From NCBI GenBank assembly GCA_934122215.1, contig CAKOWF010000001.1, positions 6,995-70,994 of the forward strand: 64,000 nt of DNA, read 5' to 3'. The position numbers and the translations under genes are program-made. Positions 5,897 to 63,052 of the stretch are shown piece by piece (position 1 is the stretch's first letter; every line of letters begins with the position of its first letter). The DNA is from an uncultured Bacilli bacterium (lineage in GTDB: Bacteria; Bacillota_I; Bacilli_A; RF39; UBA660). The notes under the pieces were generated by a model. That model was not told where the DNA came from. It did not search any database and saw only the letters and a list, made by a program, of their open reading frames with translations.

Positions 5897-5925
5897 AAAA
5901 TAATGTAGAAATTCTACATTATTTT
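5897..5925. terminator. perfect inverted repeat (14-bp arms, 1-nt spacer) overlapping stop codon of 5919..7988; likely bidirectional terminator
   Basis: AAAATAATGTAGAA-A-TTCTACATTATTTT read directly. Arms are exact reverse complements. Flanked by T/A runs. Confidence 0.4.
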
Positions 5926-7988
5926 GACATATGATTAGTTTCAATTTCATCATATATAGTTATAGCTTCTTGATAACTATTCATTGCTTCTTGTAATAAA
6001 GATTTTAATTCTTTATATGATTCTACTTTTTCATCTCTTGTTAATACTTTAACTTCAATTTCACGATTTGAATATTGTGGTTCAATAGAGTTAGTTACTG
6101 TTTCTTCACTAATTGCTTCACCACTTCCTACTGGCACAAATATTGTAGTTTCTTCTGATGGAGCATTTTTACCATCATCTTTGAAATCTTCTTTTTCTTC
6201 TTTTTCTTCTTTATCAACAACTGTTGGTGTTGTTGGTTGAAATTTTGTACCATCATTGTTATTTTTATTTGCTTCTTCGATAGCTTTTTTAGCTTCATTC
6301 CATCCTGTAGTATATGAAGATTTATATAATTCTGGAACACTATTTACATTGTTTATACCATTAGCAGCATCTATTGCACCTTGTTTAGCCCATTTTGCGG
6401 CTTCTTCTTTATCAACAACATTTCCAGTATTATCTTTGAATTCTGTTTTTTCAGTATTCTTTCTAACATTTTCTTCATATTTTTCTTTAGCATTTGGATC
6501 AGTTGGATTTACACCATTTTGAATCATATCTTCTTTAGATATTGTTCCACCTTCACCATTTGATATACCGCTATCGTCTTTACTAACTTGTGGTTTTACA
6601 CTTTTTATTGCTTTTTCTTGTTTTTCTGTATAACTTTCTAGTTCTACATAGTTTTCTAAATTTACATTTTTTGAAACTTCAACTCTTAAAGTTTTATAGT
6701 TTGCTTCATCTAAATAATATAATTGACCCATAGATATTAAATTTTCGATATTTTCTTTTCTTTCATTTAAACTATCTAATACTCTTATATTATTAATACT
6801 TTCTAATGATTTTTTTGTTTCATCTTCTATATTTAGTGTTGATGCTTCACCTTTACTCATTCCACAATTACTTACAACTGTCATTAATTTTGCTTCTAAT
6901 TCATCATCTGGGTAATAACCTAATTTATAATTAGAACTTTTTGTTAATTCGCACCAAGCCCCAAATTCAGCATTTATAAAAGTTGCTAAAGCAGAATTAC
7001 TATATTTTAATTCGTTTGTTGAATCATTTATTAAACTATAAACAAAATCATAGAATTCTTTAGAAATTTCTTTTCTTTCATCTTTTTTAGTTGCTGCATT
7101 TAATCTTGCTAAAATATCAGCGCCATCATTTAATAATTTAACATCATTTTCATTCATATAAAGATTTGAAAAATCAACTTTATTATCTAGTGTTGCCACT
7201 AACATTTGATCTTTTAGTAAATTGTTCATTTCTTTAAAATTATATATTAAATCATCATTGTCTAATACAGCCCCAGGTTGTTCTTTCATAAAGTTAGCAT
7301 ATTCTAAAGTAGTTATATTATCAATATTTGCTACTAAATAGTATTGTAACCATTCACCTGAGATTAAATCTTTTTGAGATTCTTCACTTAAGTTTTTATC
7401 TACTAATTTAACTCCATTTTTTAATAAATTATTTATTGTTTCAGTAGTATTTTCTTTAGCATTAGTTGAGAATTGCATTAAAATTTGTTCTGCAGCTATT
7501 TTATTTTCATCTATTTCTTCAACTGTATTATTTTCTTCTACTGTTTCAATTGTTTGTTGTGGTTCAGTTTCGATAACTTCTTCTGTTATATCTTTTTTAC
7601 CACAAGATATTGAAGTAGTTGCTAAAACAACAGCTAATGTAGAAATAATTCCTACTGCTTTTCCTTTTTCATATTTTTTATTTAATTTAGCATTTTTTGG
7701 TATTTCATTATATAAATTAACATCTACATCTTCTCCAAATTTTTCTACTGCTAATTTAGATAATTTTTCTTCTTCTTTTAAATTTTTATTTTCTAAATTT
7801 TCATAAATTTTAGCAATTCTTTCATCTATTTCTGATTTATAAGAATCCTCATTACCTATTATCATTGCATATAATTTATTTCTTAAATCTTCTATATCTT
7901 TCTCATCAACCTTTAGAAAGCTCATATTTGAGCTTTCATATGGTCTAAGAGTTTTATCAATAGCTTTTTGTATATAAGTTTTAGCCAT
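5919..7988 (-). CDS. bitopic membrane protein with ~105-aa cytoplasmic N-domain, one TM helix and a large K/E/N-rich extracellular domain
   Basis: 689 aa; single hydrophobic segment GIISTLAVVLATTSISC about 110 aa from the N-terminus. Remainder low-complexity acidic/coiled-coil. Anti-sigma-factor-like topology but no adjacent sigma factor. Confidence 0.5.
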   Translation of the reverse strand: MAKTYIQKAIDKTLRPYESSNMSFLKVDEKDIEDLRNKLYAMIIGNEDSYKSEIDERIAKIYENLENKNLKEEEKLSKLAVEKFGEDVDVNLYNEIPKNAKLNKKYEKGKAVGIISTLAVVLATTSISCGKKDITEEVIETEPQQTIETVEENNTVEEIDENKIAAEQILMQFSTNAKENTTETINNLLKNGVKLVDKNLSEESQKDLISGEWLQYYLVANIDNITTLEYANFMKEQPGAVLDNDDLIYNFKEMNNLLKDQMLVATLDNKVDFSNLYMNENDVKLLNDGADILARLNAATKKDERKEISKEFYDFVYSLINDSTNELKYSNSALATFINAEFGAWCELTKSSNYKLGYYPDDELEAKLMTVVSNCGMSKGEASTLNIEDETKKSLESINNIRVLDSLNERKENIENLISMGQLYYLDEANYKTLRVEVSKNVNLENYVELESYTEKQEKAIKSVKPQVSKDDSGISNGEGGTISKEDMIQNGVNPTDPNAKEKYEENVRKNTEKTEFKDNTGNVVDKEEAAKWAKQGAIDAANGINNVNSVPELYKSSYTTGWNEAKKAIEEANKNNNDGTKFQPTTPTVVDKEEKEEKEDFKDDGKNAPSEETTIFVPVGSGEAISEETVTNSIEPQYSNREIEVKVLTRDEKVESYKELKSLLQEAMNSYQEAITIYDEIETNHMSK

Positions 7989-8015: not shown

Positions 8016-9584
8016 TTATTTAGTAATTTCTTTTAATTTACCTGTATAAGAATATCCTTCTGATAATAATTTTGTATCATTTTTAACACTCCATTTAGTA
8101 TCAGTAGTTCCTTCTATCCAAGTTCTTGTCATATAACTATAATATTTTGTAGTTACAGTTTGATATACTGGTTCTTTTGTTTGTGTAGTTTTATATCCTG
8201 TAATAATTTGAATTGTTGTAGTAACTGGAACTGTTTCTTTAGCAGTTTGAGTACATTGATATTTTGTTACAGGAGTAGCTGTTCTTTCATATACTTTATA
8301 TGCTTTTGTAGTACCTGATGAACAATTATTACCACAAACATCTGGATCAGAAGATACATACACATATTTTGTAGTATTTGTATCTTTTGGTGTATATGTT
8401 AAATATACTGTTTTAACATATTTATATTCACCATATGAATATTCACCTGTTTTAACATATTCATATTTTTTACAAACTGTTTTTTCTTCAGTACCAATTT
8501 GAATTTCTTTTGTACCATAAATTGGTTGAGATTTATCAGTTTTTGTTGTTACATTATAACCAATTAATTTCTTTTCTGTTATAGTTTTAGTTTTAACTGA
8601 TGTATTAGCATCTGCTTTTACTTCTTTTGTTTGCCATTCTGACCAATTACTATATTTATAATATCCTTCAGTTTTTTTGATATATTCATATAAATATTCT
8701 TTTACTATTTCTTTATTACATGAATCTTTATATTCTTTTTCACTTACTACATTACCGTCTTTATCATAATATTGGTTATCTACTACTTCACAGTAATGTT
8801 TTGTATTTGGTGTTGGCGTTGGTGTTGAAGTACAAGATTTATTAAAATCTGCTACACTTACTACATTACCATTTTTATCATAAAATATATTATTTACTAC
8901 TTCACAGTAATGTTTTGTATTTGGTGTTGGTGTTGGTGTTGAAGTACAAGATTTATTAAAATCTGCTGCACTTACCACATTACCATTTTTATCATAAAAT
9001 ATATTATTTACTACTTCACAGTAATGTTTTTGTACTGGTTTAACTGGATAAATTGTTGGTTTTTTAACATCTGCTTTATTTTTTTCACAGATAGTTGTTG
9101 AACAATAATCATAGCATCCCATATAAACTAATAAATAATTTTCTTGTTCTCCACATTTTAAGTTGACTTTCATAACATATTCAGTTTCATGTTTTGTAAC
9201 TTCTACGTATGAATCATCTAAACTACAAGTATCACCATTTTTATCAACGAATGGTAATATAATTTTTAAATCTAACATTTTTCCTAATGTTAATCTAGTT
9301 TTGTCACCTACATTTTTAGGTAATCTTTCTGTTGTGAAATAATCTTTAGCAGAGTCTTTCATCATAAGTACATTTGTATTAAAGATACTATCATATAATA
9401 CTCCTGTATTGCATGTGTCACCACTACATGTTGTTGTAACATTTTTTAAATCACTTTTTAATGGAAATAACCATATTAAAATGAATATAAATAATGCTAT
9501 AAATAAGAATTGAATAATTACATTCTTAACTGAAAAATTTGTGTTATCGTTATACATAAATAACCCCCCTTTGAATTTACGCAC
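8016..9584 (-). CDS. membrane-anchored Cys/Thr-rich surface protein with 38-aa tandem repeats
   Basis: 522 aa; N-terminal TM (IIQFLFIALFIFILIWLF). Three tandem copies of KHYCEVVNNIFYDKNGNVVS.ADFNKSCTSTPTPTPNT; many Cys and T/K/Y-rich C-terminal half. Confidence 0.5.
   Translation of the reverse strand: MRKFKGGLFMYNDNTNFSVKNVIIQFLFIALFIFILIWLFPLKSDLKNVTTTCSGDTCNTGVLYDSIFNTNVLMMKDSAKDYFTTERLPKNVGDKTRLTLGKMLDLKIILPFVDKNGDTCSLDDSYVEVTKHETEYVMKVNLKCGEQENYLLVYMGCYDYCSTTICEKNKADVKKPTIYPVKPVQKHYCEVVNNIFYDKNGNVVSAADFNKSCTSTPTPTPNTKHYCEVVNNIFYDKNGNVVSVADFNKSCTSTPTPTPNTKHYCEVVDNQYYDKDGNVVSEKEYKDSCNKEIVKEYLYEYIKKTEGYYKYSNWSEWQTKEVKADANTSVKTKTITEKKLIGYNVTTKTDKSQPIYGTKEIQIGTEEKTVCKKYEYVKTGEYSYGEYKYVKTVYLTYTPKDTNTTKYVYVSSDPDVCGNNCSSGTTKAYKVYERTATPVTKYQCTQTAKETVPVTTTIQIITGYKTTQTKEPVYQTVTTKYYSYMTRTWIEGTTDTKWSVKNDTKLLSEGYSYTGKLKEITK
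8781..9060. repeat. 114-bp tandem repeat (two near-identical copies plus a partial third; a diverged copy lies just downstream at ~8700-8780)
   Basis: tactacttcacagtaatgttttgtatttggtgttgg... recurs at 8781, 8895 and 9009. Copies differ by about 3 nt. Confidence 0.8.
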
Positions 9585-10012: not shown

Positions 10013-10819
10013 CTATTTTACAAATAAATTAATAACAGTCGATATATCTATTTTTAACAAAACAATTATTATAGCTGATAAAGCTAAAAATGGTCCAAAA
10101 GGAATACTATTTTCTGGTATTTCTTCATCTTCAATATATTTTTTATTTTTATATTTAAAACTAAAATATATTGCTACAGGTAAGGCTATAAATGAGGCAA
10201 TAAATATTGAAATAATACTCATTTTCCAGCCAAATACTAATCCAAAAGTAAATAGTAATTTTATATCTCCTCCACCCATAGATTCTTTTTTAAACATAAA
10301 ATCGCCCATTTTTTTCAAAATAAACATTAGTGAGAACGATATTATTCCATTTATTAATGAAGTAGCAAGTAAAGATATACCCCCCTTAACAAATAATAAT
10401 ATAGAAATTATAATCGAACTTGATATTAATACCTCATCTGGTATAATCATCATTTGATAGTCACTAATAATTATTATTAATAACATTGAAATAAATGATA
10501 TTGTTATAAGAAAATCTATACTTGAACCATATATGTAATATGATAAGGCAAATAAGATTCCTGTAGATAATTCGAATATTGGATAAAATAAAGATATTTT
10601 AGATCCACAATGTTTACATTTACCTTTTTGAAATAAATAAGAAAAAAAAGGAACTAATTCACTAGCTCCTAATTTGTGATTACAAGTCGTGCAGTGAGAT
10701 GAAGGATATATTAATGATTGCTTTTTTGGTACCCTATAACCAACTACATTGTAGAAAGATCCTAAGGTTATACCAAAAATAAATGATACAATTAAATAAT
10801 AATATTCCATACTTCTCAC
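10013..10819 (-). CDS. pilD: type IV prepilin peptidase (A24 family, PilD/ComC-like)
   Basis: 268 aa; N-terminal zinc-binding CTTCNHKL...CKHCGSK tetracysteine. Eight TM. Catalytic Asp region (IIISDYQMMIIPDE). Confidence 0.85.
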   Translation of the reverse strand: MRSMEYYYLIVSFIFGITLGSFYNVVGYRVPKKQSLIYPSSHCTTCNHKLGASELVPFFSYLFQKGKCKHCGSKISLFYPIFELSTGILFALSYYIYGSSIDFLITISFISMLLIIIISDYQMMIIPDEVLISSSIIISILLFVKGGISLLATSLINGIISFSLMFILKKMGDFMFKKESMGGGDIKLLFTFGLVFGWKMSIISIFIASFIALPVAIYFSFKYKNKKYIEDEEIPENSIPFGPFLALSAIIIVLLKIDISTVINLFVK

Positions 10820-10822
10820 CTT

Positions 10823-12889
10823 CTAACCATAATTTTGAATTGAACTATACATATTAAACATTGGAACAATTACAGCTAAGATAATTGTACCAACTACTGC
10901 TGTTAAGAATACTGTTAATATTGGTTCAATAAATGATTTAATTCTAGTTACTGATTCTTTATGTAAATCTTGATAATATTCAGATACTTTTCCCATCATT
11001 TCTGCTAACTCACCAGTTTTTTCTCCAGTTACTAACATTTCATAAGCTGGTACAGGAAATGCCCAATGGCCTTCAAATGCTTTAGATATTTTTTCACCCT
11101 TAGCTAAATTTGTTATAGTATCTAGGATTAACATTTTATATATTTCATTGTTTGTAATTTTATTTAATACTTCCATACTATCAGTAATAAATACATTATG
11201 CGCTAATAATGAAGAGAAAGTTTTAGTAAACATTGTAACTTCATTATATATAATAGTTTGACCTATTACAGGAATATGCATTGCTACCCATTGACATATA
11301 GTTCTAAATATTTTGACGTTTTTATATAAGTATATAAATATTAAAATAAATATTACTATGCCAATTAAAATCCAAATTATATAATTTTGTATAAATTCAC
11401 TTACTGCTATTACAGCTAATGTAAATGATGGTATCTGTGATGCATCCATAGTTTCATATATTTCAACAAATTGTGGAATAACAAACATCATTATAAAAGT
11501 AATTACTGCTGTAGCAAATACAAATACAATTGATGGATATGTTAATGCTGTTATCATTTGTTTTCTAGTACGCTCTGTTTCTGTATAATAATTAGCCATG
11601 TCATCTAAAACTTCTGGAAGTTCTCCAGTCATTTCAGCAGTTTTAACCATATTAATTAATAATCTTGGAAATGCTACATTTTGTTTTAATAAAGCTTCAC
11701 TAAAATTTTCACCTGTTGTTAAATCATATACGACACTTTCAAATATTTTTTTATAGCTTTTCTTTTTGAATTGTCTAGAAAGAATTTTTAATGCTTCAAC
11801 AAGTGGTATACCTGCTTTTATATATGTTGATAATTGTGTTAAAAAGAAAATCAAATCTTTTGTTTTTATTTTTGTGTAATTAGTACTTCTACTTCCATGT
11901 AGAAATTGAATCCACTTATTAGTTCTTATACTATATACTTCAAATCCTTCACTCAATAAATAAGAATGTACTTCAACTTTTGAAAAAGCTTCAAAGTATC
12001 CTTTAACTACTTGTCCTTCTTTATTTTTAGCAACATATTCATATAGTAATTTTACATCACTTTTTTGAGCATCTTCTCCATCAAAATTTATTAGAAGAGC
12101 TTCTTTTTCCATCATCTTTTTATTTCGACTATGTTTTACAAAGTCATTATTATTAAACTTGTTTTTAATAGCTGTTGGAATGTTTAATATTCCTTCCCAC
12201 ATTTTCTTTAGTTTTTGTTTAAATCCTGATGTTGAAATATCCACATTCTTATCAATATAGCTATCATTTTCTTTTTTCTTTTTTTCTGCTTGCTTTTCAG
12301 CTTTTCGTATTCTTGCTTCTTCTTTTTTCTTATATTTTTCTTCATCTAAAGCAAGTTTTTGCATTTTTTCTTGATCTCTAACTATTTTTCTTTGAACTTT
12401 TAATTTTTGTTTTTCTAATTTTTTTAACAATTTTTCAGTTATTATTGGTTGTTCATTATATTGTTCAAATAGTTCTTCAGTTTGTTCTACAGAATCGTCT
12501 TTATTTTCTATAACAGGTTCTGTTTTAATTTCTGGTATAGTTTCTTCCATCTTATCGTCAGAAGTTATTTCTAATGTATTTTCTTCTTTTTTATTTTCTA
12601 ATTTTATTTTTGGTTTTTTATTTATTTGTATATACCATATTGGTGTACAGATAAATACACTTATGCCTTTTATAAAATATCTAAATAATTGATATACAAA
12701 ATAGCATACCCAAACAAATCCTTTAATACTATATTCAAATAGTACTAAAATTTTATTTATAGCATACAATGTTCCTATAGTGAAATATCTTATTATATAA
12801 TATGGTATTTTCAATATTGCGAATACTATTTTGTACACAAAAATAAATGGAAGTAAATATATCGGTTTTCGCATATCAAGCACCGCCAT
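10823..12889 (-). CDS. type II secretion / type IV pilus platform protein (GspF/PilC/ComGB family) with ~260-aa N-terminal TM + coiled-coil extension
   Basis: C-terminal ~400 aa has the duplicated GspF domain (DLIFFLTQLSTYIKAGIPLVEALKIL ... second repeat and 3 TM). N-terminal 1-95 has multiple TM helices, and 100-250 is a K/E-rich coiled-coil absent from canonical PilC. Confidence 0.75.
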   Translation of the reverse strand: MAVLDMRKPIYLLPFIFVYKIVFAILKIPYYIIRYFTIGTLYAINKILVLFEYSIKGFVWVCYFVYQLFRYFIKGISVFICTPIWYIQINKKPKIKLENKKEENTLEITSDDKMEETIPEIKTEPVIENKDDSVEQTEELFEQYNEQPIITEKLLKKLEKQKLKVQRKIVRDQEKMQKLALDEEKYKKKEEARIRKAEKQAEKKKKENDSYIDKNVDISTSGFKQKLKKMWEGILNIPTAIKNKFNNNDFVKHSRNKKMMEKEALLINFDGEDAQKSDVKLLYEYVAKNKEGQVVKGYFEAFSKVEVHSYLLSEGFEVYSIRTNKWIQFLHGSRSTNYTKIKTKDLIFFLTQLSTYIKAGIPLVEALKILSRQFKKKSYKKIFESVVYDLTTGENFSEALLKQNVAFPRLLINMVKTAEMTGELPEVLDDMANYYTETERTRKQMITALTYPSIVFVFATAVITFIMMFVIPQFVEIYETMDASQIPSFTLAVIAVSEFIQNYIIWILIGIVIFILIFIYLYKNVKIFRTICQWVAMHIPVIGQTIIYNEVTMFTKTFSSLLAHNVFITDSMEVLNKITNNEIYKMLILDTITNLAKGEKISKAFEGHWAFPVPAYEMLVTGEKTGELAEMMGKVSEYYQDLHKESVTRIKSFIEPILTVFLTAVVGTIILAVIVPMFNMYSSIQNYG

Positions 12890-16859: not shown

Positions 16860-17396
16860 ATGAATTTAAAGAAAGTTAAAATTATAAATGTTTTTGCAGT
16901 ATTTTTGCTATCTTTTTTAGCACATAATATATATAAATGGTTTCCTAATACGATTACTTCAATATTTTTTCCAGTTAATGAAAGTATTTTTGAACATATG
17001 AAAATTATTTCTACTTGCTTTTTATCTTATGGAATTTTTGAATTTTTTATAATTAAACATTTTAATATTAAATTTAATAATTATTTATTTTCTTGTTTTT
17101 TATCTGTTTTATTAGGTATAATTATTTACCTAATTATATTTGTACCAATTCATTTATTTATAAGTCGTTCTATGTTTATACCAATTATTTTATTATTTAT
17201 AGTCTACATTTTCATGAACATAATAAGTTACTATATTTTAACAATTAATGAAATACCTCATATAGAAAATATTTCAATAATTTTAGTAATTGCTTTATAT
17301 ATTTTATTTGGATATCTTACTTATAAGCCTCCACATATTTTCTTATTTTTTGATACTGTTTTAGAAAAATATGGTATTAATGAATATTTAGTTTAA
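16860..17396 (+). CDS. hypothetical polytopic membrane protein
   Basis: ORF-track start is GTG at 16848. ATG at 16860 after GGTGAGA. About 5 TM helices, no motif. Confidence 0.45.
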   Translation: MNLKKVKIINVFAVFLLSFLAHNIYKWFPNTITSIFFPVNESIFEHMKIISTCFLSYGIFEFFIIKHFNIKFNNYLFSCFLSVLLGIIIYLIIFVPIHLFISRSMFIPIILLFIVYIFMNIISYYILTINEIPHIENISIILVIALYILFGYLTYKPPHIFLFFDTVLEKYGINEYLV

Positions 17397-19148
17397 AATT
17401 CCTTTTATTCTCCTTACACCTGAAGAAGATGCTTCTTCTTTTTTTATAGTGAAATGTCCTAATTCTTTAGTGTTTTTTACATGAGGTCCCCCACATAATT
17501 CTTTAGATACAGTACCATATTTATCATTACCTATTGAGTATACTGTTACAATATCAGGATATTTTTCTATAAACATACATTCTGCTCCTGATTTAATTGC
17601 TTCTTCTTTACTCATTTCTTCAACAGTTACATCTAGTCCTGCTTCTATCCATTCATTAACTAATTTTTCAGTATTCATTTTTTCTTCTTCTGTTAATTTA
17701 TGATCGCAATTGAAGTCAAATCTTAATCTTTCACTAGTAATATTTGAACCTTTTTGGTGAACATCTTTACTAACTGTTATTTTAAGTGCTGCATTTAAAA
17801 GATGTGTAGCTGTATGATATTTTGTTTCAATTTCACCATTACCACCTAATCCACCTTTGAATTGTCCAGCAGATGCTGTTCTACTTTTTTCTTGGTGTTC
17901 CTTAAATTTAGCAATAAATCCTTCTTCATCTACTTTGATATTAAGTTCATTTGCTAATTCTTTTGTTAATTCTATTGGAAATCCATATGTATCAAATAAA
18001 TGAAATGCTGTAATTCCATCTATATCAGAATTATTTTTTGTTACTTTTTCAAATTCTCTTAATCCTTTTTCTAAAGTTCTATTAAATTTCAATTTTTCAT
18101 TTTTTAAAACTTCTAATACAACTTCACGATTATCTTTTAATTCTTTATAATATACTTCATACATATTTAAAATTACTTCTGCAATTCTTTGTTCCCAATC
18201 AGAATTAATATCGATATTTAAGTTTTTAGCATGTCTTATAGCACGTCTAATTAATCTTCTTAAAATATAACCTTGTCCAACATTGCTAGGCTTAATTCCT
18301 GCCGGATCAGCACTTATAAATACAGAAGTTCTCAAATGATCTGCTATAATACGCATACTTTTTTCATTTCCCTCATATGTTTTTCCTGATACTTCTTCAA
18401 TTATTTTTATAACAGGAATCCATATTGATGATGCATAATTATCAGTTTTGCCTTCTAATATAGCAGTCACTCTTTCAACTCCCATTCCTGTATCTACATT
18501 TTTTTTAGGAAGTTCAACAATTTTACCATCTTCATTATGATTGTATTGCATAAATACGTCATTCCATATTTCAACCCATCTGCTATCTTCTGGATCAAAT
18601 GTTTCTGGTATTGGATCATTACTACGCCAATAAAACATTTCAGAATCAGGTCCACATAGTCCTGGCATTTCTAAGTTAGGCCACCAATTATCTTCTTTAG
18701 TAGCGAAAATTCTTTTTTCAGGAATTCCTAATTTTAGCCAAATATTTTTTGTGTATGTATCCATTGGAGCAATTTCATTTCCAGCAAATATTGTTACAGC
18801 TAATCTTTCTACTGGTATATTTAATACTTTTGTTAAAAATTCAAAACTCCATGATATAGCTTCATCTTTAAAATAATCTCCTAATGACCAATTACCTAAC
18901 ATTTCAAAAAATGTATGGTGATATGTATCTCCTACTTCATCCAAATCATTTGTTCTAATACACTTTTGGTAGTCACATAATCTTGTACCATATGGATGTG
19001 GTTGTCCCATTAAGTAAGGTATTAATGGTTGCATTCCTGCTGTATTAAACAAAACTGTATTATCATTTTCTGGTACTACTGGTGCACTTGGTATTTGTTT
19101 ATGCCCTTTACTTACAAAAAAATTTATGTATAAGTCTTTTAAATTCAT
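17388..19148 (-). CDS. alaS: alanine--tRNA ligase, compact form (catalytic + tRNA-recognition + editing domains, no C-Ala domain)
   Basis: 586 aa; class II motifs (FEMLGNWSLGDYFK, GMGVERV), editing-domain HTATHLL (HxxxH) and CGGPH zinc site. Ends right after editing domain. Canonical AlaRS is ~870 aa. Confidence 0.7.
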   Translation of the reverse strand: MNLKDLYINFFVSKGHKQIPSAPVVPENDNTVLFNTAGMQPLIPYLMGQPHPYGTRLCDYQKCIRTNDLDEVGDTYHHTFFEMLGNWSLGDYFKDEAISWSFEFLTKVLNIPVERLAVTIFAGNEIAPMDTYTKNIWLKLGIPEKRIFATKEDNWWPNLEMPGLCGPDSEMFYWRSNDPIPETFDPEDSRWVEIWNDVFMQYNHNEDGKIVELPKKNVDTGMGVERVTAILEGKTDNYASSIWIPVIKIIEEVSGKTYEGNEKSMRIIADHLRTSVFISADPAGIKPSNVGQGYILRRLIRRAIRHAKNLNIDINSDWEQRIAEVILNMYEVYYKELKDNREVVLEVLKNEKLKFNRTLEKGLREFEKVTKNNSDIDGITAFHLFDTYGFPIELTKELANELNIKVDEEGFIAKFKEHQEKSRTASAGQFKGGLGGNGEIETKYHTATHLLNAALKITVSKDVHQKGSNITSERLRFDFNCDHKLTEEEKMNTEKLVNEWIEAGLDVTVEEMSKEEAIKSGAECMFIEKYPDIVTVYSIGNDKYGTVSKELCGGPHVKNTKELGHFTIKKEEASSSGVRRIKGILN

Positions 19149-19690
19149 TATTTCACCTCATCTAATATATTATTAATTTTAATTCTTAATTCTTCTAATG
19201 TTCCATTATTGATTATTTTGTAATCATATTTATCATAATTATTTAATGCTGTTTCAGTTATGTGTTGTTGTTGCTTTTCTGTCAAATCAGAATAATTTCT
19301 TTCTATCTTAATTCTAATTACTTTTTCATATTTATTATATGGTACTTCAATTTCTTCTTTTAATCTAGCATCTGCTATTATAATTACATCATAAAAATAT
19401 GAATAGACTTCTATATCTTGTAACATTCTATTTATGAAAAAATTATTATCTATTTTATTTCTTATTATTTCAGTACCTAATTGTTGTAAAAATTCTCTTG
19501 GCTTTGTTTCCTCTGATCCATCCCAATTTAATATTTTTTGTGCATAATTTTTAATTGATTCAGCATAAATTAAATCGATAACTTTCATATTTTTATTATT
19601 ATAATATTCTTTAATATAGTCAGTAATAGTATTTTTACCACTTCTTGCTTTTCCATATATCACAAATATTATAGGTTTCTTTTTTTTCAT
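19148..19690 (-). CDS. P-loop NTPase, (deoxy)nucleotide-kinase-like
   Basis: 180 aa; Walker A YGKARSGKNT at the N-terminus. Stop overlaps alaS start (ATGA). Confidence 0.4.
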   Translation of the reverse strand: MKKKKPIIFVIYGKARSGKNTITDYIKEYYNNKNMKVIDLIYAESIKNYAQKILNWDGSEETKPREFLQQLGTEIIRNKIDNNFFINRMLQDIEVYSYFYDVIIIADARLKEEIEVPYNKYEKVIRIKIERNYSDLTEKQQQHITETALNNYDKYDYKIINNGTLEELRIKINNILDEVK

Positions 19691-28387: not shown

Positions 28388-31300
28388 CTATTCTTCTACT
28401 AAAGTACCATCAACACCACCCGTACCTATTTTAGTTACTGTTGATGTATATGTACCATTTACAGATCCTGAATATTTATAACCAACAGATATTCCTACTG
28501 TTTGATTACCTCTAATTGTACAATTAGTAACTTTACCTGCTGTGTATGATCCATATCTTGTATCTCCTACAAGTCCACCTACTGATTTATTACCAATAAT
28601 ATTTGATGATGATATTAAATCTGTAGCACTACATCCGTTATAAACTTTTCCCATGATACCACCACAATTTGTGCCAGTGCATGTTATAGTATTATTTGAT
28701 ACTGCAGTTGTTATTGTTTTATTATTTAATCCTGCTATACCCCCTACATTATCTACACCTTTAACTACATTATTATTTGTTACAACATTTGTAATTGTTC
28801 CTGTATTATTTCCAGCAATTAAACCAATTCCTCCACCACTACCTAATCCAGTTAAACTTGAATTAGTTATTTCGATATTTTCTATAGTTCCTGAATTTGT
28901 ATTTGTTATAATTCCTGAGTAAATATTTTTTGATGAGCCTGTTACTATAGCTTTATTTATTTTTAAATTTTTAATTGTTCCTGTATTATTTCTAAATAGT
29001 CCTGCATAAGCTGTATTTAATTTTATATTTGATAAAGTATGATTATTACCATCAAATACTCCATTGAAGTCACTAAATACATAATATATTTGATTAGAAA
29101 AATCTATATCACTATTTAATTTAAAGTATTTTGTTTGATTACTATATAATGTAGCTGACTTCATATCATTAACATTATTTATAATATATGGATCTTCTTC
29201 TGTTCCACTCCCTGTTAATGTGCTTACTATTGTTGATGATGGTTTAATAGATACTACTTTTGTTAATGAATCATAATCAAAATAGTAATTATTTGTTGTT
29301 CCATTAATCCATGTATCAACAACGATATCATATGTATTAATTTCGTTTAAGAAATCTGTTTGTATTGTTGTACTATCTTCTGCTGTATCTTCTACACCAT
29401 TTATAACTCTTTTAACATTTTCAAATGCTAAACCACTTACTCCACCAGAATATTGATACCCAACAAGTTTTCCAACACTACTTGTTCCACTTAATGTACC
29501 ACCAATAACTAATCCTGTTGTTGAAGTACCATATCTTGTATCTCCTACAAGTCCACCTACTGATTTATTACCAATAATATTTGATGATGAAATTAAACTT
29601 GATGCACTACATCCGTTATAAACCCGTCCCATAATTCCACCACAATTAGTTCCCGTACATGTTATTGTATTATTTGATACTGCAGTTGTTATTGTTTTAT
29701 TATTTATTCCTGCTATACCACCAACATTATCTACACCTTCAACTACATTATTATTTGTTACAACATTTGTAATTGTTCCTGTATTATTTCCAGCAATTAA
29801 ACCAATTCCTCCACCATTACCTAATCCAGTTAAACTTGAATTAGTTATTTTAATATTTTCTATAGTTCCTGTATTAGTATTTGTTATAATTCCAACTGTA
29901 TTTTTTCCATATACATTTGCTTTATCAATAATTAAGTTTTTAATTGTACCACTATTACCTGTAAATACACCATAAACTGTATTAATATTTGATAAAGTAT
30001 GATTGTTACCATCAAACACTCCATTAAATGAAGCAAATGAATAAAAGTGTTGATTAGAAAAATCTATATCACTATTTAATTTAAAGTATTTTGTTTGATT
30101 ACTATATAATGTAGCTGATTTCATATCATCAACATTATTTATAATATATGGATCTTCTTCTGTTCCACTTCCTGTTAATGTACTAATCATTGTTGATACA
30201 TCTTTAATAACAATATTATCTGTACCATCTTCATAATCAAAATAATAGCCATCACCATCATCGTCACCATTAATCCATGTATCAACAATTAAATTATATA
30301 TATTTATATTATTCATTTTTTCATGGTCAATTACTTTTGCATACAAAGCATCAGTTTCAGATATCACTTTTTCTGTTTCATTAAGATATATTTTATATGT
30401 GTCTGACATATAAGCATCATATCCACCATTTTTATATCCTTCTATAAAGTCTACATCATTAGTACCAGTAACTGTTCCGCCTGTTATTAAGCCTGTTATA
30501 CTGTATCTATATCCACCACTACCAACTAAACCAGCTACTTCTTTAACACCAGTTACAATTGATGAAGAAATAACTGATGAAGTAGATGCTGAACCGCCAA
30601 CTACACCACCAACAGTTGACCCAGTTGATGTAACTTTATTAGATACTATAGCTGTTGTTAATTTATTAGCATAACCTGCTATTCCACCAACTCTATTTAC
30701 TCCAGTAATTTCATTATCAACTGTTATAACATTTTTAACAGTTTGACCTTGCCCTATTGACCCAACAGCATTATTACCTATAACTTTATTGTTTTTGAAA
30801 TAAACTTTTTCTACATTATTACCATATCCTACAATGCCGGTATAATCTCCACCTGTTATATTACAATTTAAAACTGATAAATTATATATAGTACCACCAC
30901 TATAACCTATAACACCAGTATAGTTTCCTCCAGTTATATTAGAATCCTTTATTGTTAAATTTTTAATTGTACCATCATTATTACCAATAAAACCTGCTTT
31001 AACTTGTGATGTTGTTAAATTAATACCAGCTATATAATTATTATTTCCTTCAAATGTACCTTTAAATGTTGATGATAAAGGATATGAATTCTCTAATTCA
31101 GTAATTAATGGTTCTACTTTTCCATCTCCATTAATATCTCCAAAAGTTGTATTTAAAGAATCAACATATGATACTTCTTTTGATAAATTTATAGAATTAT
31201 CTAAATATACTGTTTTCTTATCAAAATTTTTTCCTGATTTAACTAAAGTAGAAAAAGCTATCAAATCTTCAGCACTTTTGATATGACATTCGTTTGCATT

Positions 31301-31771
31301 TGTATAATCTTCTTCATTAGTACCACAAATTATTCCTGGATTTTCATCTTCTACTTTTGGGGTAGTTTCTTTATTATATGCGAAATCTATATTACAATTA
31401 TCTATTTCATCGCTCATTTCAATTTCAGTTATAGATTGATCTTTTCTTTTAGTAAAACATTTATCACCTATTAATAATGCGAAATCTATTTCACCATTGT
31501 AATATACATATATTTCTCCTTTTGCTTCTATTCCTTTTACTTTTAATTCATTAATAATATTTTTTCCTATTTTATCTTGCTTTCCTAAATCTGTTTCAGA
31601 TAAAACATAAAAATTTTCTGCTGATTTTAAATATCCTTCAGCACTCCTTCTATAGCTTTTTATTCTTGAGTCTTCAATAACGTTCATTATCATTGGTGTT
31701 GCAATCAAAGCTATTATAGATAGAATTACTATAACTGCTAGTAACTCTATTAATGTAAACCCTTTCTTCAT
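28388..31771 (-). CDS. giant type IV pilin-like protein: prepilin N-terminus fused to three parallel beta-helix (GLUG-like) modules
   Basis: True start ATG at 31771 (AGGAGATGCGGT-ATG) gives MKKGFTLIELLAVIVILSIIALIATPMI (class III signal, G-1/F+1/E+5). Followed by ~1100 aa with three modules each opening with (SGTEEDPYIINNV..)-like segment and repeated VGG(I/L)AG / N.TG.I.N turns. ORF-track start 31822 adds 17 aa and is unlikely. Confidence 0.8.
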   Translation of the reverse strand: MKKGFTLIELLAVIVILSIIALIATPMIMNVIEDSRIKSYRRSAEGYLKSAENFYVLSETDLGKQDKIGKNIINELKVKGIEAKGEIYVYYNGEIDFALLIGDKCFTKRKDQSITEIEMSDEIDNCNIDFAYNKETTPKVEDENPGIICGTNEEDYTNANECHIKSAEDLIAFSTLVKSGKNFDKKTVYLDNSINLSKEVSYVDSLNTTFGDINGDGKVEPLITELENSYPLSSTFKGTFEGNNNYIAGINLTTSQVKAGFIGNNDGTIKNLTIKDSNITGGNYTGVIGYSGGTIYNLSVLNCNITGGDYTGIVGYGNNVEKVYFKNNKVIGNNAVGSIGQGQTVKNVITVDNEITGVNRVGGIAGYANKLTTAIVSNKVTSTGSTVGGVVGGSASTSSVISSSIVTGVKEVAGLVGSGGYRYSITGLITGGTVTGTNDVDFIEGYKNGGYDAYMSDTYKIYLNETEKVISETDALYAKVIDHEKMNNINIYNLIVDTWINGDDDGDGYYFDYEDGTDNIVIKDVSTMISTLTGSGTEEDPYIINNVDDMKSATLYSNQTKYFKLNSDIDFSNQHFYSFASFNGVFDGNNHTLSNINTVYGVFTGNSGTIKNLIIDKANVYGKNTVGIITNTNTGTIENIKITNSSLTGLGNGGGIGLIAGNNTGTITNVVTNNNVVEGVDNVGGIAGINNKTITTAVSNNTITCTGTNCGGIMGRVYNGCSASSLISSSNIIGNKSVGGLVGDTRYGTSTTGLVIGGTLSGTSSVGKLVGYQYSGGVSGLAFENVKRVINGVEDTAEDSTTIQTDFLNEINTYDIVVDTWINGTTNNYYFDYDSLTKVVSIKPSSTIVSTLTGSGTEEDPYIINNVNDMKSATLYSNQTKYFKLNSDIDFSNQIYYVFSDFNGVFDGNNHTLSNIKLNTAYAGLFRNNTGTIKNLKINKAIVTGSSKNIYSGIITNTNSGTIENIEITNSSLTGLGSGGGIGLIAGNNTGTITNVVTNNNVVKGVDNVGGIAGLNNKTITTAVSNNTITCTGTNCGGIMGKVYNGCSATDLISSSNIIGNKSVGGLVGDTRYGSYTAGKVTNCTIRGNQTVGISVGYKYSGSVNGTYTSTVTKIGTGGVDGTLVEE
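28440..30300. repeat. ~960-bp direct duplication inside the giant pilin gene (modules 2 and 3)
   Basis: Long near-identical stretches at 28840-28920 vs 29810-29890 and 29085-29160 vs 30050-30125. Protein segments STMISTLTGSGTEEDPYIINNVDDMKSATLYSNQTKYFKLNSDIDFSNQ and STIVSTLTGSGTEEDPYIINNVNDMKSATLYSNQTKYFKLNSDIDFSNQ. Confidence 0.8.
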
Positions 31772-38224: not shown

Positions 38225-38440
38225 TCCTCCTATATAAAAAATCACATCCTATATAAGGACGTGATTTACGTGGTACCACCTTAATTTAATAGTATTTCTA
38301 CTATTCTCAATGTCTTAATGCGACTAACAATATATCCTACTACTATTTCAGATATATAACTCACAAGCTACCTTCTATATTCTATATTATTCATTTCCAC
38401 CAACCATGAACTCTCTTTAAATATAATAATATATACTCCT
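38225..38440 (-). promoter_or_regulatory. T-box riboswitch leader (valS-type)
   Basis: Minus-strand AATTAAGGTGGTACCACG (38286..38269) matches T-box consensus AATTAGGGTGGNACCGCG. Followed by terminator hairpin AAATCACGTCC..GGATGTGATTTTTT. Stem-I-like AGAGAG/GAA region upstream. Possible TTGAAA-n18-TATATA promoter at ~38430-38459. Confidence 0.6.
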
Positions 38441-38499
38441 CTTGTTCCTCGTTTTTCAAATTAAATTAATTTTAACACAATTATTTCATAAAATCAACA

Positions 38500-51796: not shown

Positions 51797-51873
51797 TGGT
51801 GGCCCGTATGGGATTTGGACCCATGAATAATACCTTGAGAGGGTACCGTGTTAAACCACTTCACCAACGGGTC
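51797..51873 (-). tRNA. tRNA-Glu (anticodon CUC)
   Basis: Hand-folded: GACCCGU acceptor (A2·C71 mismatch), D-arm with GG, anticodon stem GUACC/GGUAU, loop CUCUCAA, 5-nt variable loop, T-arm AUGGG-UCCAAAU-CCCAU, discriminator A, encoded CCA. Overall very similar to B. subtilis tRNA-Glu. Confidence 0.75.
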
Positions 51874-53561: not shown

Positions 53562-53636
53562 TGGCTGCCCAAGTAGGATTCGAACCTACGAATGTCGGAG
53601 TCAGAGTCCGATGCCTTACCGCTTGGCTATTGGGCA
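53562..53636 (-). tRNA. tRNA-Gln (anticodon CUG)
   Basis: Hand-folded: U1:A72 acceptor UGCCCAA/UUGGGCA, anticodon stem UCGGA/UCCGA, loop CUCUGAC, T-loop UUCGAAU, discriminator G, encoded CCA. Confidence 0.8.
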
Positions 53637-59250: not shown

Positions 59251-59793
59251 TTATATAATCATCAATTCTTTTTCTTTAGTAGAAACAACATCTTCTACTT
59301 TTTTATTGAATTTTTGAATTAATTCTTGTACTTCATCTTGTCCAGATTTTATTTCATCTTCAGTAATTTCTAATTTTTTAATATCATTATTAGCATCTTG
59401 TCTTATATTTCTTAAAGCAATTTTTGCTTCTTCGCCAATAGCTTTTGCTTGTTTTACATATTCTCTTCTTGTTTCTTCTGTCATAGCTGGAATATTTAGT
59501 ATAACAACTTCTCCATTATTATTTGGAGTTATACCTATATTTGCTGCCAAAATAGCTTTTTCTATTAAACCAATGCTTGATCTATCAAATGGTTTTACTT
59601 GTAACATTCTAGCTTCTGGTACTGATATAGTCGCTAATTGTTTTAAAGGTGTATCAACTCCATAATAAGATACCATTACACCATCTAACATTGCAGGATT
59701 TGCTCTACCTGCTCTAATATTTAATAATCTTTTTTCTAAATTATCAATTGCACTTTCCATACGAGTTTCTGTTTCTAATAAAATTTCATCCAT
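59251..59793 (-). CDS. frr: ribosome recycling factor
   Basis: 180 aa; full-length RRF. Confidence 0.9.
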   Translation of the reverse strand: MDEILLETETRMESAIDNLEKRLLNIRAGRANPAMLDGVMVSYYGVDTPLKQLATISVPEARMLQVKPFDRSSIGLIEKAILAANIGITPNNNGEVVILNIPAMTEETRREYVKQAKAIGEEAKIALRNIRQDANNDIKKLEITEDEIKSGQDEVQELIQKFNKKVEDVVSTKEKELMII

Positions 59794-59885
59794 ATATATT
59801 TTCCTTTCAATTTAGTAATCTAATTGTATCATATTTTACATATAATTTTCAACAATAATAAGAAAATAAGTACTAAGTACCTATT

Positions 59886-60956
59886 TTATGATATTATTGT
59901 CTTTTCAATTGTTATTACTGGACGAATACCAATACTAACTTTATTTTTTTCCATACAACCTAATGACCCATTCGAATTAATAATCCATACATAAGTTGAT
60001 CCTGGCACAGATGAACTTGTCCAATATCCAAAAATATTTGACGTATATATATCATATGTATATCTATTGTTATCCTCTACATTACATCCATATGATGAAC
60101 AACTATTTGTATAATCAAATAACCATGCATATTTGCTTGCTCCTTGACTTGTAGCTGTTTGTGTTTGACTATTACTATCAAGATAGAATGATTCCCCTAA
60201 AGTACTACCTGTAAATTTATCATTATTAGTTATTTTAGCTACTTCTTCTGCTGAAATTATTCTAGGATTTACTACCCATCCTGATGTTGTTTTTAAATCT
60301 TGTATTGCTGAAGATAAATTACTATCTTCATAAGATAAATTTTCACCATAATTATTCCAAGTAATCATACTAGATGTATTATGGTCTAATATCATATTAA
60401 CTGTTGATGAATCTTCATTATCATTAAATGTATACCATTTCATACATCCTGTTTTTGTTCCAGTTGTACTTACTGATTCTGATTCACTACATATGCTATT
60501 TGTTTGTGGATTATAATAGATTGCTGTTCCATTTGAATATACTTTATATGTTGTTTTTGGATGTTCTCCTATTTCACCATTTTTTATTGTTTCTCCATTA
60601 CAATTTATTACATATTCTCCTATTTTTAATGAACATGCTATTACTTGTCCTTTTTCTATTTTTACCCAACTATCTTCTGTTGGTTGTTCTCCTTTTACTT
60701 TAACATCATATGTTGTACTTTTTAATGTACTTACTTCATATATTCCATCTTCTATATTTGTTTTATTTGTATCTAACATATTAGTAGCTATTGTTTTTTC
60801 TACTGCATCCAAATATCCTAGAGCACTTGATTCTGCTCCTCCTTTTTTTGCTTTTTCTATTATTCCTAATATCATTGGTGTTGCGATTAATGCTATGATT
60901 GCTAGTATTACTATTACTGCTAGCAATTCTATTAATGTAAACCCTTTTCTTTTCAT
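59886..60956 (-). CDS. type IV pilin-like protein with C-terminal DUF1566/Lcl-C-like domain
   Basis: True start ATG at 60956 after AGGAGAG: MKRKGFTLIELLAVIVILAIIALIATPMI (class III signal). C-terminal ~130 aa has W..P...E...I and YWTSS...VW.I..G....K...IRPV, resembling DUF1566. Confidence 0.75.
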   Translation of the reverse strand: MKRKGFTLIELLAVIVILAIIALIATPMILGIIEKAKKGGAESSALGYLDAVEKTIATNMLDTNKTNIEDGIYEVSTLKSTTYDVKVKGEQPTEDSWVKIEKGQVIACSLKIGEYVINCNGETIKNGEIGEHPKTTYKVYSNGTAIYYNPQTNSICSESESVSTTGTKTGCMKWYTFNDNEDSSTVNMILDHNTSSMITWNNYGENLSYEDSNLSSAIQDLKTTSGWVVNPRIISAEEVAKITNNDKFTGSTLGESFYLDSNSQTQTATSQGASKYAWLFDYTNSCSSYGCNVEDNNRYTYDIYTSNIFGYWTSSSVPGSTYVWIINSNGSLGCMEKNKVSIGIRPVITIEKTIIS

Positions 60957-60999
60957 TTTATCTCTCCTACTCTCATTATATGTTATCAAAAAAAGAAAG

Positions 61000-61045
61000 T
61001 TTATTCAATAAACTCTCTTCATATTTTATATAATTTTACATTAAA
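61000..61045 (-). terminator. rho-independent terminator downstream of tsf
   Basis: Minus-strand GAAGAGAGTTTATT-GA-ATAAACTTTCTT followed by TTTTTTT. Pilin RBS/start follow within ~35 nt. Confidence 0.5.
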
Positions 61046-61056
61046 TATAAATTATA

Positions 61057-61938
61057 TTATCCATTAATTTGTTTTGCTACTTCTTCAGCAAAATTTTCTT
61101 CTTTCTTTTCCATACCTTCGCCAACTTCAAAACGAATCATATTAACAATTGTTCCACCATTATTTTGAACAAATTGTCCTACTGTTTCTTTGTTTTCAGC
61201 TTTAACGAAGATTTGGTTTTCTAAACATACTTCTTCATAGTATTTTTTAACTTTACCAACTAATATAGATTCAATTCTATCTTCTGGTTTACCTTCATTA
61301 ATTAATTGTTCTCTCATGATAGCTTTTTCTTTTTCTAATACATCTGCTGGTACATTTGTTGATTTAACATAAAGTGGTCTCATAGCTGCAGCATGCATTG
61401 CTACATCTTTAGCTACTGCTTCTGAAGCATTGTCAACTAAAGTTAAAACAGCAATTCTACCACCCATATGAATGTATTCACCAAATGATTCTGAATCAGT
61501 TTTTTCTATTTTTGCAAATCTTCTTAAAGATAATTTTTCTCCAATAGTTGCTGTTTTAGAAATTATTAATTCACTTACTGTTTCTTCTGAATCTACTACT
61601 TTTTCATTTAATAATTCTTCAGTAGTTGTAACATTACTATTTAAAATAGTTTTTAAAATAGTTTGTACTAATGATTTAAATTCTTCATTTTTAGCAACAA
61701 AATCTGTTTCAGAATTTACTTCTACTATAGCTGCTTTATTACCATCTATTAAAATTGATGCTAATCCTTCAGCTGCAATTCTGTCTGCTTTTTTAGCAGC
61801 TTTTGAAATTCCTTTTTCTCTTAACCAATCTATTGCTTCATCAATATTACCATTAGTTGCTTCTAGAGCTTTTTTGCAATCTAACATACCAGCTCCACTT
61901 TTTTCTCTTAGTTCTTTTACTAAACTAGCACTAATCAT
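61057..61938 (-). CDS. tsf: elongation factor Ts
   Basis: 293 aa; MISASLVKELREKSGAGMLDCKKAL N-terminus. Confidence 0.95.
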   Translation of the reverse strand: MISASLVKELREKSGAGMLDCKKALEATNGNIDEAIDWLREKGISKAAKKADRIAAEGLASILIDGNKAAIVEVNSETDFVAKNEEFKSLVQTILKTILNSNVTTTEELLNEKVVDSEETVSELIISKTATIGEKLSLRRFAKIEKTDSESFGEYIHMGGRIAVLTLVDNASEAVAKDVAMHAAAMRPLYVKSTNVPADVLEKEKAIMREQLINEGKPEDRIESILVGKVKKYYEEVCLENQIFVKAENKETVGQFVQNNGGTIVNMIRFEVGEGMEKKEENFAEEVAKQING

Positions 61939-62044: not shown

Positions 62045-63052
62045 TTATTTTAAAGCTTCTAATAATTCAGCTTTTTTCATTGTAGAGTATCCTTTGATAT
62101 CTTTTTCTTTAGCTAATTCTCTAAGTTCAGCTACAGTCATTTTATCTAAAGATACTTCTTTTTTTTCTTCTTTTACTTCTTTTTTAGTTTCTTTAACTTC
62201 TTCAGTTTTTACTTCTTTTTTATCATTTTTCTTGAAACCTTTATTTTCAAATTTATTTGATTTAAAATTTTTATTTTCTTTTCTTCTATCTTCTCTTTTT
62301 TTAACAGTTTCTAAAGCTTTTTCCATGATATTAACATCTTTTTCTTCTTCTTTAGTGTAGTCTACTAATTTACCACCATTAGCTTCTACTATAGCATTAG
62401 CCATAACACCAGTAATTAATTTTACTGCACGAATTGCATCATCATTACCTGGAATTACATAGTCTACCATATCTGGATCACAGTTAGTATCTACGATACC
62501 AAATACTGGAATTCCTAATCTTCTAGCTTCACGAATTGCTATATATTCTTTAGATGGATCTACAATAAACATTGCTTGTGGTAATTTGTACATATCTCTA
62601 ATACCACATAATAATTTATTTAATTTTTCGTATTCTTTTTTGATTCCAATTACTTCTTTTTTAGGTAATTTATCAAAAGTACCATCTTTTTCCATTTTTT
62701 CGATGTCTTCTAATCTTTTAACTCTTCTTCTAATTGTTTTGAAGTTTGTTAAAGTACCACCTAACCATCTTTCTGAAACATAATAAGAGTTTGAACGAAT
62801 TGCTTCTTCTTTGATAGCTTCACTAGCTTGTTTTCTAGTTCCAACGAAAATAACTTTTCCACCATTAGCTACAATATTTTTTAATGCAGCATAAGCTTCT
62901 TCTATTTTTTCTGCTGTTTTCTTTAAATCAATTATATATATTTCATCTCTTGAAGTATATATATATTCTTTCATTTTTGGATTCCATCTTTTTGTTTGAT
63001 GACCAAAATGTACACCTGTTTCAAGTAAATAACTCATTGACACTACTGCCAT
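62045..63052 (-). CDS. rpsB: 30S ribosomal protein S2 with ~85-aa K/E-rich C-terminal extension ending in a Rho_N/SAP-like motif
   Basis: N-terminal 250 aa is canonical S2. Tail ...[45 protein letters not shown]. Confidence 0.9.

Follow-up and report, generated by a model that had tools for sequence, protein, structure and literature searches.

Here we describe a gene with a prepilin-type N-terminus that lies between tsf and frr in a 64,000-nt stretch of DNA (the window) from an uncultured Bacilli bacterium (RF39; UBA660; assembly GCA_934122215.1, contig CAKOWF010000001.1, positions 6,995-70,994 of the forward strand). The window has a G+C content of ~24%, and its minus strand holds nearly all genes, including every window feature for which coordinates are given below. 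From position 63052 down to 54132, the gene order is rpsB, tsf, the pilin open reading frame (ORF), frr and rlmN, then genes for a PP2C phosphatase and a PASTA Ser/Thr kinase, and finally rsgA and rpe. Strong Pfam matches identify rpsB (62045-63052), tsf (61057-61938) and frr (59251-59793), which stand in the conserved order given in a preliminary description of this DNA; tsf, the pilin gene and frr share one orientation. As listed, the pilin ORF runs from the first TTG (59886..60989). From the ORF list and the sequence, the real start is the ATG at 60956-60954 rather than this TTG, giving a coding sequence of 356 aa (59886..60956; stop codon 59888-59886). The gene has its own ribosome-binding site (RBS), as the preliminary description held: AGGAGAG at 60968-60962, 5 nt 5' of the ATG.

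The N-terminus of the protein, MKRKG followed by FTLIELLAVIVILAIIALIATP, consists of a short basic leader ending in Gly and a hydrophobic stretch with Glu at +5. It scores 32.7 bits against N_methyl (PF07963; cut-off 21.2) and 33.5 bits against TIGR02532 (cut-off 16.3), and the leader MKRKG (60942..60956) is a class III signal peptide with a predicted prepilin-peptidase cut after Gly5. Across an alignment of 40 homologues, G5, F6, T7, L8, I9 and E10 are invariant, including the positions G-1, F+1 and E+5 relative to the predicted cut. A six-frame motif scan finds exactly two prepilin-type N-termini in the window, confirming the earlier view of this gene as a second such protein. The other belongs to a giant paralogue of 1127 aa between ruvB and queA (28388..31771, from ATG 31771). 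The two N-termini, previously called almost identical, are indeed one substitution and one leader residue apart, and the genes share 87% DNA identity over 78 nt of 5' coding sequence.

Residues 6-135 of the tsf-frr protein (60552..60941) form a pilin module comprising an alpha1 helix (residues 8-61) and a small beta-sheet (residues 97-125). An AlphaFold2 (AF2) model built on the 40-member alignment, with a mean predicted local distance difference test (pLDDT) score of 83, places a 54-residue alpha1 helix ahead of the beta-sheet at 97-125, a linker at ~126-140 and an alpha/beta domain of ~215 residues. In this model the extended alpha1 helix packs on an antiparallel beta-sheet, as expected of the pilin fold.

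The C-terminal module (residues 141-356; 59889..60536) is C-type-lectin-like and resembles DUF6273 and Lcl_C. It carries the motifs GCMKWY, LDHNT, GYWTS and GIRPVIT; among the 40 homologues the invariant features are C156, C171, C286 and C291 together with GCMKWY, LDHNT, GYWT and GIRPVI. In the predicted structure, this head has a C-type-lectin-like fold that resembles the C-terminal domain (CTD) of Lcl, and it is structurally similar to proteins that carry DUF6273. FGE-type domains are named among its fold relatives, and its best matches among predicted viral structures are DUF6273 proteins of gut phages. Profile matches in the homologues run the same way: DUF6273 matches 9 of 40 close homologues (best E=1e-6), Lcl_C matches six of the 40 weakly (best E=0.0083), and PF19789 is precomputed for many matches of the protein-cluster search described below. 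In published work, the domain of an immunoglobulin A peptidase (IgAse) annotated as DUF6273 is C-type-lectin-like and similar to the Lcl-CTD (PMC12237041, PMC12402451), the Lcl-CTD contains DUF1566 and binds glycosaminoglycans (PMC11162425), and gut-phage DUF6273 proteins are C-lec receptor-binding proteins, some of them targets of diversity-generating retroelements (DGRs) (PMC10743442). The preliminary description had called this C-terminus DUF1566-like on account of its YWTSS...IRPV motifs. The motifs are real and family-invariant, but the kinship holds at the level of the predicted fold, and the head is more exactly labelled a DUF6273-like C-type-lectin fold.

A search of ~5.8 billion protein clusters returned 7343 matches, many of them full-length relatives of ~345 aa with 52-60% identity and almost none with a source name; full-length homologues overall range from 52 to 96% identity. 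Searching 1.84 billion cluster representatives (50% identity level) with a C-terminal-domain profile gave 1768 proteins at E<=1e-3 and 608 at E<=1e-30, with one to five copies of the domain per protein. Of the top 146 domain proteins, half have the canonical G(F/Y)T(L/M)(I/V)E motif at the N-terminus; in the others the N-terminus is an ordinary signal anchor, a lipoprotein signal or a degenerate 'KGFA(I/V)SG' form. Given these varied N-termini, the module is an extracellular head in general use among low-GC gut Firmicutes and their phages, with the pilin as one of several carriers. The tsf-frr protein thus has the make-up of a modular pilin, a pilin module plus an extra domain that is not specific to type IV pili: the model has two modules, and the second also occurs behind non-pilin N-termini.

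A first set of 85 loci from relatives, with flanks up to 10 kb (~0.92 Mb in all), comprised 80 frr loci and five homologue loci. The frr loci come from GTDB species representatives, all of them uncultured 'Bacilli/Tenericutes' metagenome-assembled genomes from the gut, whose Frr is 69-94% identical to that of the window. Prepilin-type genes are frequent in these small genomes. The sampled loci hold 29 motif matches, at least one of which is spurious, a density of ~3 genes per 100 kb; the C-terminal parts are very diverse, often very large, and run from 124 to >1100 aa (for example L001:3295-5469, L031:6624-9173, L034:6624-9251, L039:6629-8779, L079:1887-3455 and L081:9117-12542; the L079 protein, of 522 aa, looks repeat-rich). 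Several relatives have a prepilin-type gene immediately 3' of frr.

The pilin gene is preceded by a leader of ~90 nt (60957..61044) that contains a hairpin, promoter-like boxes and the strong RBS. The 13-bp hairpin (61020-60992; fold -11.2 kcal/mol, z=-4.1) holds TTGAAT in its loop (61008-61003) and is followed by a T7 run (60994-60988) and by TGA-TAACAT (60987-60980), which lies 17 nt beyond TTGAAT and overlaps a perfect TATAAT (60980-60975). These boxes may function as a promoter. The same leader, ~90% identical, stands 5' of eno-linked paralogues at two loci (L087 and L089), where G-U to G-C changes keep the stem; their proteins are 61-64% identical overall to the window pilin and 98% identical over the first 60 residues. 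The giant paralogue has a similar 5' layout, with a hairpin bearing TTGAAA in its loop, a T8 run, TGA-TATCAT (TGATATCAT) and an RBS. Because the leader recurs upstream of the eno-linked paralogues, the hairpin with its T7 run, which exists as the preliminary description said, belongs to the pilin cassette and is not a terminator of tsf.

At the 3' end, a hairpin overlaps the stop codon and is followed by UUUUCUU (59863..59887; fold -8.1 kcal/mol, z -3.3), which makes this end terminator-like. The 3' flank of the pilin gene is not shared, and the 3' arm of the hairpin is local frr-upstream sequence common to L007, the locus of the nearest sister species (Tsf 97%, Frr 94%). Beyond it, frr has a promoter-like site of its own (59823..59852; TTGAAA-18-TACAAT with TG), conserved in L007. 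With its own hairpin, promoter-like boxes and RBS, and with a separate promoter-like site for frr, the layout looks insulated rather than co-transcribed. We infer that the ~1.18-kb cassette would insulate itself: its terminator, promoter and RBS would travel with the gene, which could thus lie among housekeeping genes uncoupled from them.

Rfam assigns no family at gathering score to the pilin leaders of the window, L001, L002, L003 and L005; its matches, a T-box and tRNAs, lie elsewhere. Phase variation at the T7 tract was considered and rejected, since T7 is present in all four homologous leaders and shows no length variation, and no run of eight or more G or C occurs in the window. A different leader occurs in a related spore-forming lineage, where nine pilin genes of the family are each preceded by the same ~100-nt sequence (L002:12781-12886, L003:5900-6003, L005:5908-6012, L094:9464 and 19405, L108:9528, L110:588 and 1900). 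It has a nested hairpin (GUUUGU..GGCAAA..UUUGCC..GCAAAC) and then a variable poly-G tract (G9 six times, G10 twice, G11 once), which pairs with a CCUCUCUUUUUU tail to form a second, terminator-like hairpin. This leader has no Rfam match and is not found in the window; in genomes of ~25% GC, such a poly-G leader is a candidate attenuator or slipped-strand phase-variation switch.

Taken together, these features point to a modular type IV pilin with a C-type-lectin-fold head, encoded by a portable cassette that has been inserted in one species of gut Bacilli, a reading to which we give a probability of roughly three in four. The class III signal peptide would be cut between MKRKG and FTLIE by the enzyme expected to process the pilin, a prepilin peptidase (10013..10819; A24_N_bact and Peptidase_A24) whose gene lies ~50 kb off in the window. 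The hydrophobic alpha1 helix and the small pilin module would then anchor the protein in the membrane and may allow its incorporation into a type IV or Com-like filament, in which it would most likely be a tip subunit or one of low abundance. The binding head would be the grafted, disulfide-rich module of ~215 residues, its specificity set by the hypervariable C-terminal hairpin region. The most likely role is that of a pilus-presented or membrane-anchored adhesin.

Beside the peptidase gene lies a gene for a PilC/ComGB-like platform protein with two T2SSF domains (10823..12889). It is positioned directly downstream of dnaG-sigA-trmK and upstream of the peptidase gene, with no adjacent ATPase gene, and its product has an unusual N-terminal extension of ~340 residues with membrane helices and a long charged coiled coil. 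Downstream of the peptidase are two large proteins without a Pfam match. The first (8016-9584) is a Cys-rich protein of 522 aa with an N-terminal membrane anchor and three tandem repeats of ~45 aa (KHYCEVVNNIFYDKNGNVVS.ADFNKSCTSTPTPTPNT); the second (5919-7988) is a charged protein of 689 aa with one membrane segment.

Several results weigh against the reading of a lectin-headed pilin. No PilB/ComGA-type (T2SSE) ATPase is present among the scanned ORFs of the 64-kb window and no short major pilin was found in it, so that a complete assembly machinery is not demonstrated there. The profile hidden Markov model (HMM) of Lcl_C/DUF1566 (PF07603) gave no match to the tsf-frr pilin at E<=1 with hmmscan, which led us to reject direct membership of DUF1566, and that of DUF6273 (PF19789) is likewise silent at E<=1. 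The family profile of the C-terminal domain returned 0 matches at E<=10 among PDB sequences; the head assignment therefore rests on the predicted structure together with the weak matches in homologues. Lcl itself has no canonical Ca2+/carbohydrate motifs of C-type lectin domains (PMC11162425). Finally, with so bulky a head, a subunit of 356 aa might just as well stay anchored in the membrane and never polymerise.

This last point is the substance of the strongest alternative, in which the class III signal peptide is a processing and anchoring device only and the protein is a surface lectin held in the membrane or on a short pseudopilus stub. Class III signal sugar-binding proteins of the Sulfolobus bindosome offer an archaeal analogue. 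In favour of this alternative, prepilin-type genes at ~3 per 100 kb are too many for all to build filaments, ordinary signal anchors, lipoprotein signals and degenerate 'KGFA(I/V)SG' N-termini precede the lectin module in other proteins, and the assembly ATPase is not seen in the window. However, the pilin module (residues 1-135) is 84-100% identical among paralogues whose heads differ, suggesting a constrained surface such as that used in filament packing; E+5 is invariant; and a PilC-like platform gene is present. We regard a lectin that is merely anchored as less likely, at about one-quarter the weight of the modular pilin.

The modular-pilin concept, including pilins with lectin modules, is established and widespread (PMC8179133, PMC9934059). 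The closest parallels to the tsf-frr protein are PilB and PilC of Streptococcus sanguinis, also a monoderm Firmicute, in which a class III signal peptide, a small pilin module and a short linker likewise precede a bulky binding module (vWA in PilB, a concanavalin-A-like lectin in PilC). Their adhesin role is what we predict here. By contrast, the graft in the window protein has a C-type-lectin fold (DUF6273/Lcl_C-like) instead of a vWA or concanavalin-A-like one, the gene is a solitary cassette among housekeeping genes and is not part of a pil operon, and there are many paralogues with swapped heads. For the head, the comparators are the N-terminal domain of the Thomasclavelia ramosa IgA peptidase (PDB 9qa6) and the gut-phage DUF6273 proteins, including DGR targets ('tentaclins'). 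Where the IgAse domain has a zinc site, the present family has four invariant cysteines, and, as noted, the window protein misses the Pfam model at E<=1; further, its domain sits on a pilin and not on a protease or on Ig-like domains. Relative to Lcl, the domain is about twice the size of the CTD, has no HMM match and no collagen stalk, and gives no evidence of trimerisation. The 'conserved pilin' of TANB77 (PMC11680825) was rejected as a relative, as it belongs to a Tad-type cluster in Clostridia.

A different account starts from the location of the gene. The canonical Firmicute cluster is rpsB-tsf-pyrH-frr(-uppS-cdsA), as in Bacillus subtilis. The preliminary description saw the pilin gene as occupying the place of pyrH and suggested that such sites are selected for high transcription. 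The position of the gene between tsf and frr, in the same orientation, agrees with this idea, as do paralogues and homologues after eno, inside gap-pgk, after frr and before prfA and mraZ. Relative to the canonical cluster, rpsB, tsf and frr keep their order and orientation in the window, but pyrH is missing both here and in the sampled relatives, frr is followed by rlmN-prpC-pknB-rsgA-rpe in place of uppS-cdsA, and the tsf-frr and frr-rlmN junctions hold different accessory surface-protein genes according to species. A PyrH query validated against PDB uridylate kinases (E=2e-120) found nothing in the window by six-frame tblastn even at E<=10, and none of the scanned window ORFs has an amino-acid-kinase domain; a pyrH fused to, or hidden in, another frame of this region was rejected on this result. 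Nor did tblastn find a credible PyrH in the 85 relative loci, where the weak matches (E>=0.29; for example GrpE) are noise.

Synteny decides against displacement. No pyrH lies beside frr in any of the 80 sampled relatives (80/80), whether the pilin is present or not, and the tsf-frr junction holds either unrelated genes or nothing. In L007, L009, L010, L012 and L085, tsf and frr are adjacent with gaps of 93-267 bp and nothing between them; the junctions of L013 and L017 have an unknown protein of 204-207 aa and that of L021 a 500-aa membrane protein, while in L008 the gene for signal peptidase I, a 90-aa ORF, a secreted protein of 848 aa and a PH-like protein lie there. Most other relatives have frr away from tsf altogether (for example dnaJ-frr or ATPase-frr-ndk). 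Aligned with L007, the window has ~1.18 kb (59889..61056) in place of ~80 bp that include that species' own, different tsf terminator: the blastn match ends exactly at the tsf stop codon (61057) and picks up again at 59872. The pilin is found at tsf-frr only in the window's own species, namely in L001, whose flanking proteins are 99-100% identical, and in five contigs with identical Frr. The cassette sits between the tsf stop codon and the frr promoter-like site in one species-level lineage. Because the sister species and other relatives also have no pyrH at this junction, its loss or relocation came before the pilin was inserted and had nothing to do with that insertion. The 'pyrH slot' is therefore true only as a description of position, and on the synteny evidence the pilin did not displace pyrH. 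A tempting synteny argument is in this way corrected, the missing pyrH next to frr being a clade-wide feature unrelated to the pilin.

The expression half of the idea fares no better. In a wider sample, obtained by scanning metagenomes with the domain profile, the immediate neighbours of 34-35 complete genes were called and scanned against Pfam. Upstream (n=34) these are ribosomal protein L32 (3), small acid-soluble spore protein (3), Clp ATPases (2), GyrA/ParC (2) and DUF4186 (2), as well as RsmD, Ddl, thioredoxin, a penicillin-binding protein and an ABC transporter; downstream they are HrcA (3), FtsW/RodA (2), FabG (2), YlmH (2) and other pilins (2), as well as UvdE, SpoIIGA, ApbE, MraZ, ThiF, LexA and FtsA. 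In this crude comparison, which mixes taxa and has no formal null, the neighbours are a broad range of housekeeping genes, among which translation, glycolysis or top-expressed loci are not evidently over-represented (L32 accounts for 3 of 34 upstream neighbours); it lends no support to selection for placement. In genomes of ~1.2 Mb (L079), almost any site adjoins a core gene. Moreover, terminator-like hairpins bracket the pilin gene and frr has its own promoter-like site, a layout that looks insulated. That the pilin took over a pyrH position selected for its transcription is accordingly improbable.

Other accessory genes have been observed at these junctions. Between frr and rlmN, two sister species (L006:6545-10613 and L007:4060-8376) carry a signal peptidase I gene with a secreted repeat protein of ~850-1060 aa and a PH-like protein of ~130 aa. 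The same module lies between tsf and frr in L008 (2142-5987) and at neither junction in the window. The junctions around tsf, frr and rlmN act as a hot spot for genes of accessory surface proteins. As for pyrimidine metabolism, the window, with no visible pyrH, has a pyrimidine-nucleoside phosphorylase (1256-2527) and a small protein resembling deoxynucleoside monophosphate (dNMP) kinases (19148-19690; PF21448), and L079 has two such dNMP-kinase-like genes in tandem beside alaS. One of them might conceivably phosphorylate uridine monophosphate in the clade.

Still less probable is a minor pilin of the competence (Com) pseudopilus, with a part in DNA uptake and not in adhesion. The genes for the platform protein and the peptidase stand side by side, and in Bacilli such machinery genes belong to the Com system; the N-terminus also has weak similarity to the ComGC, ComGD, ComGE and ComGF models (E=4e-6 to 2e-3), far below cut-off. 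This similarity, however, is confined to the generic N-terminal helix and scores far under the equivalog cut-offs (27 vs 75 bits), and the lectin-type fold of the head is one common to phage receptor-binding proteins and a surface protease.

Variation within the family is concentrated in the head. Column entropy peaks at residues 321-340 (2.0-2.9 bits), between GYWTS and GIRPV, within a hypervariable mosaic segment that spans residues 286-343 of the lectin module (59928..60101). Against the same-species orthologue in L001 there are 77 nt differences, 16 in the first 270 codons and 61 in codons 271-358, and those in the last ~88 codons include many synonymous and many non-adenine changes, a pattern that points to replacement by recombination and not to DGR mutagenesis. 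That a DGR diversified the head, as in the C-lec/DUF6273 phage proteins and TvpA, is the least probable alternative: the fold class matches known DGR targets and the C-terminal end of the fold is where the variable segment is found, but the 64-kb window has no template-like repeat of the 3' region and no reverse transcriptase among its scanned ORFs, and the L001 allele differences are often synonymous and often involve no adenine on either side.

Segment identities among the homologues are discordant. Relative to the window pilin, P0012 is 100% identical over residues 1-60, 89% over residues 61-135 and 34-46% across the head, and P0025 shows the opposite trend. An eno-linked paralogue is present in the same samples as the tsf-pilin-frr contigs and shares with the tsf-frr pilin a 5' segment of ~0.5 kb that is 86-100% identical in 100-nt blocks; the window species appears to carry this paralogue, with the same leader and pilin module and a different head. 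The assemblies tend to break here. Among contigs with the exact Tsf, found in eight places, four end inside the pilin gene and a fifth ~150 nt past tsf, and the domain lies within 1.5 kb of a contig end in 7 of 26 metagenome contigs of >=10 kb, where 2.7 are expected. Two contigs with identical Frr (L173 and L175) have eno-pilin-frr-rlmN instead of tsf-pilin-frr-rlmN, with pilins 99.7% (L175) and 93% identical to the window gene. These joins are either assembly chimeras across the ~0.5-kb repeat or real recombinants; the reciprocal product, tsf-pilin-HI0933, was not seen among the contigs with the exact Tsf, five of which end in or near the pilin gene. It is tempting to see in this a conserved carrier (the ~90-nt leader and pilin module) reused at several sites, with heads exchanged between these insulated cassettes by homologous recombination in a manner resembling pilE/pilS or mycoplasma surface variation, with poly-G on/off switching in the related lineage and with the eno-pilin-frr contigs as real recombinants; in this full form we hold the proposal to be speculative.

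Some further features of the window and its relatives lie outside the pilin system. Ribosomal protein S2 (the rpsB product, 62045-63052) has 335 aa and a C-terminal extension rich in Lys and Glu, conserved in close relatives, which terminates in a Rho_N/SAP-like helix-extended-helix domain (PF07498, E=1.7e-9). Typical bacterial alanyl-tRNA synthetase has ~870 aa; that of the window (17388-19148) has only 586 aa and its counterpart in L079 (9625-11367) 580 aa, and the short enzyme stops directly after the tRNA_SAD domain, so that it appears to lack the C-terminal part. A T-box leader (38252-38458; 129 bits) lies 5' of an ORF of 159 aa and of valS. On either side of gltX is a tRNA gene (53565-53636 and 51800-51873), the first of which overlaps the TTG start listed for the gltX ORF; the real start of gltX is therefore further downstream.

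With a leader in common, mosaic heads and breaks in assembly, loci of this family are repeat-like, and metagenome assemblies may join contigs wrongly around them. For a very large family of unnamed proteins, whose source is gut Bacilli that have small genomes and have so far resisted culture, the tsf-frr gene provides a concrete architecture and a likely role, that of a lectin-headed pilus or surface adhesin. It also ties the family to the DUF6273/DUF1566 C-type-lectin fold of gut-phage receptor-binding proteins and of an IgA protease.

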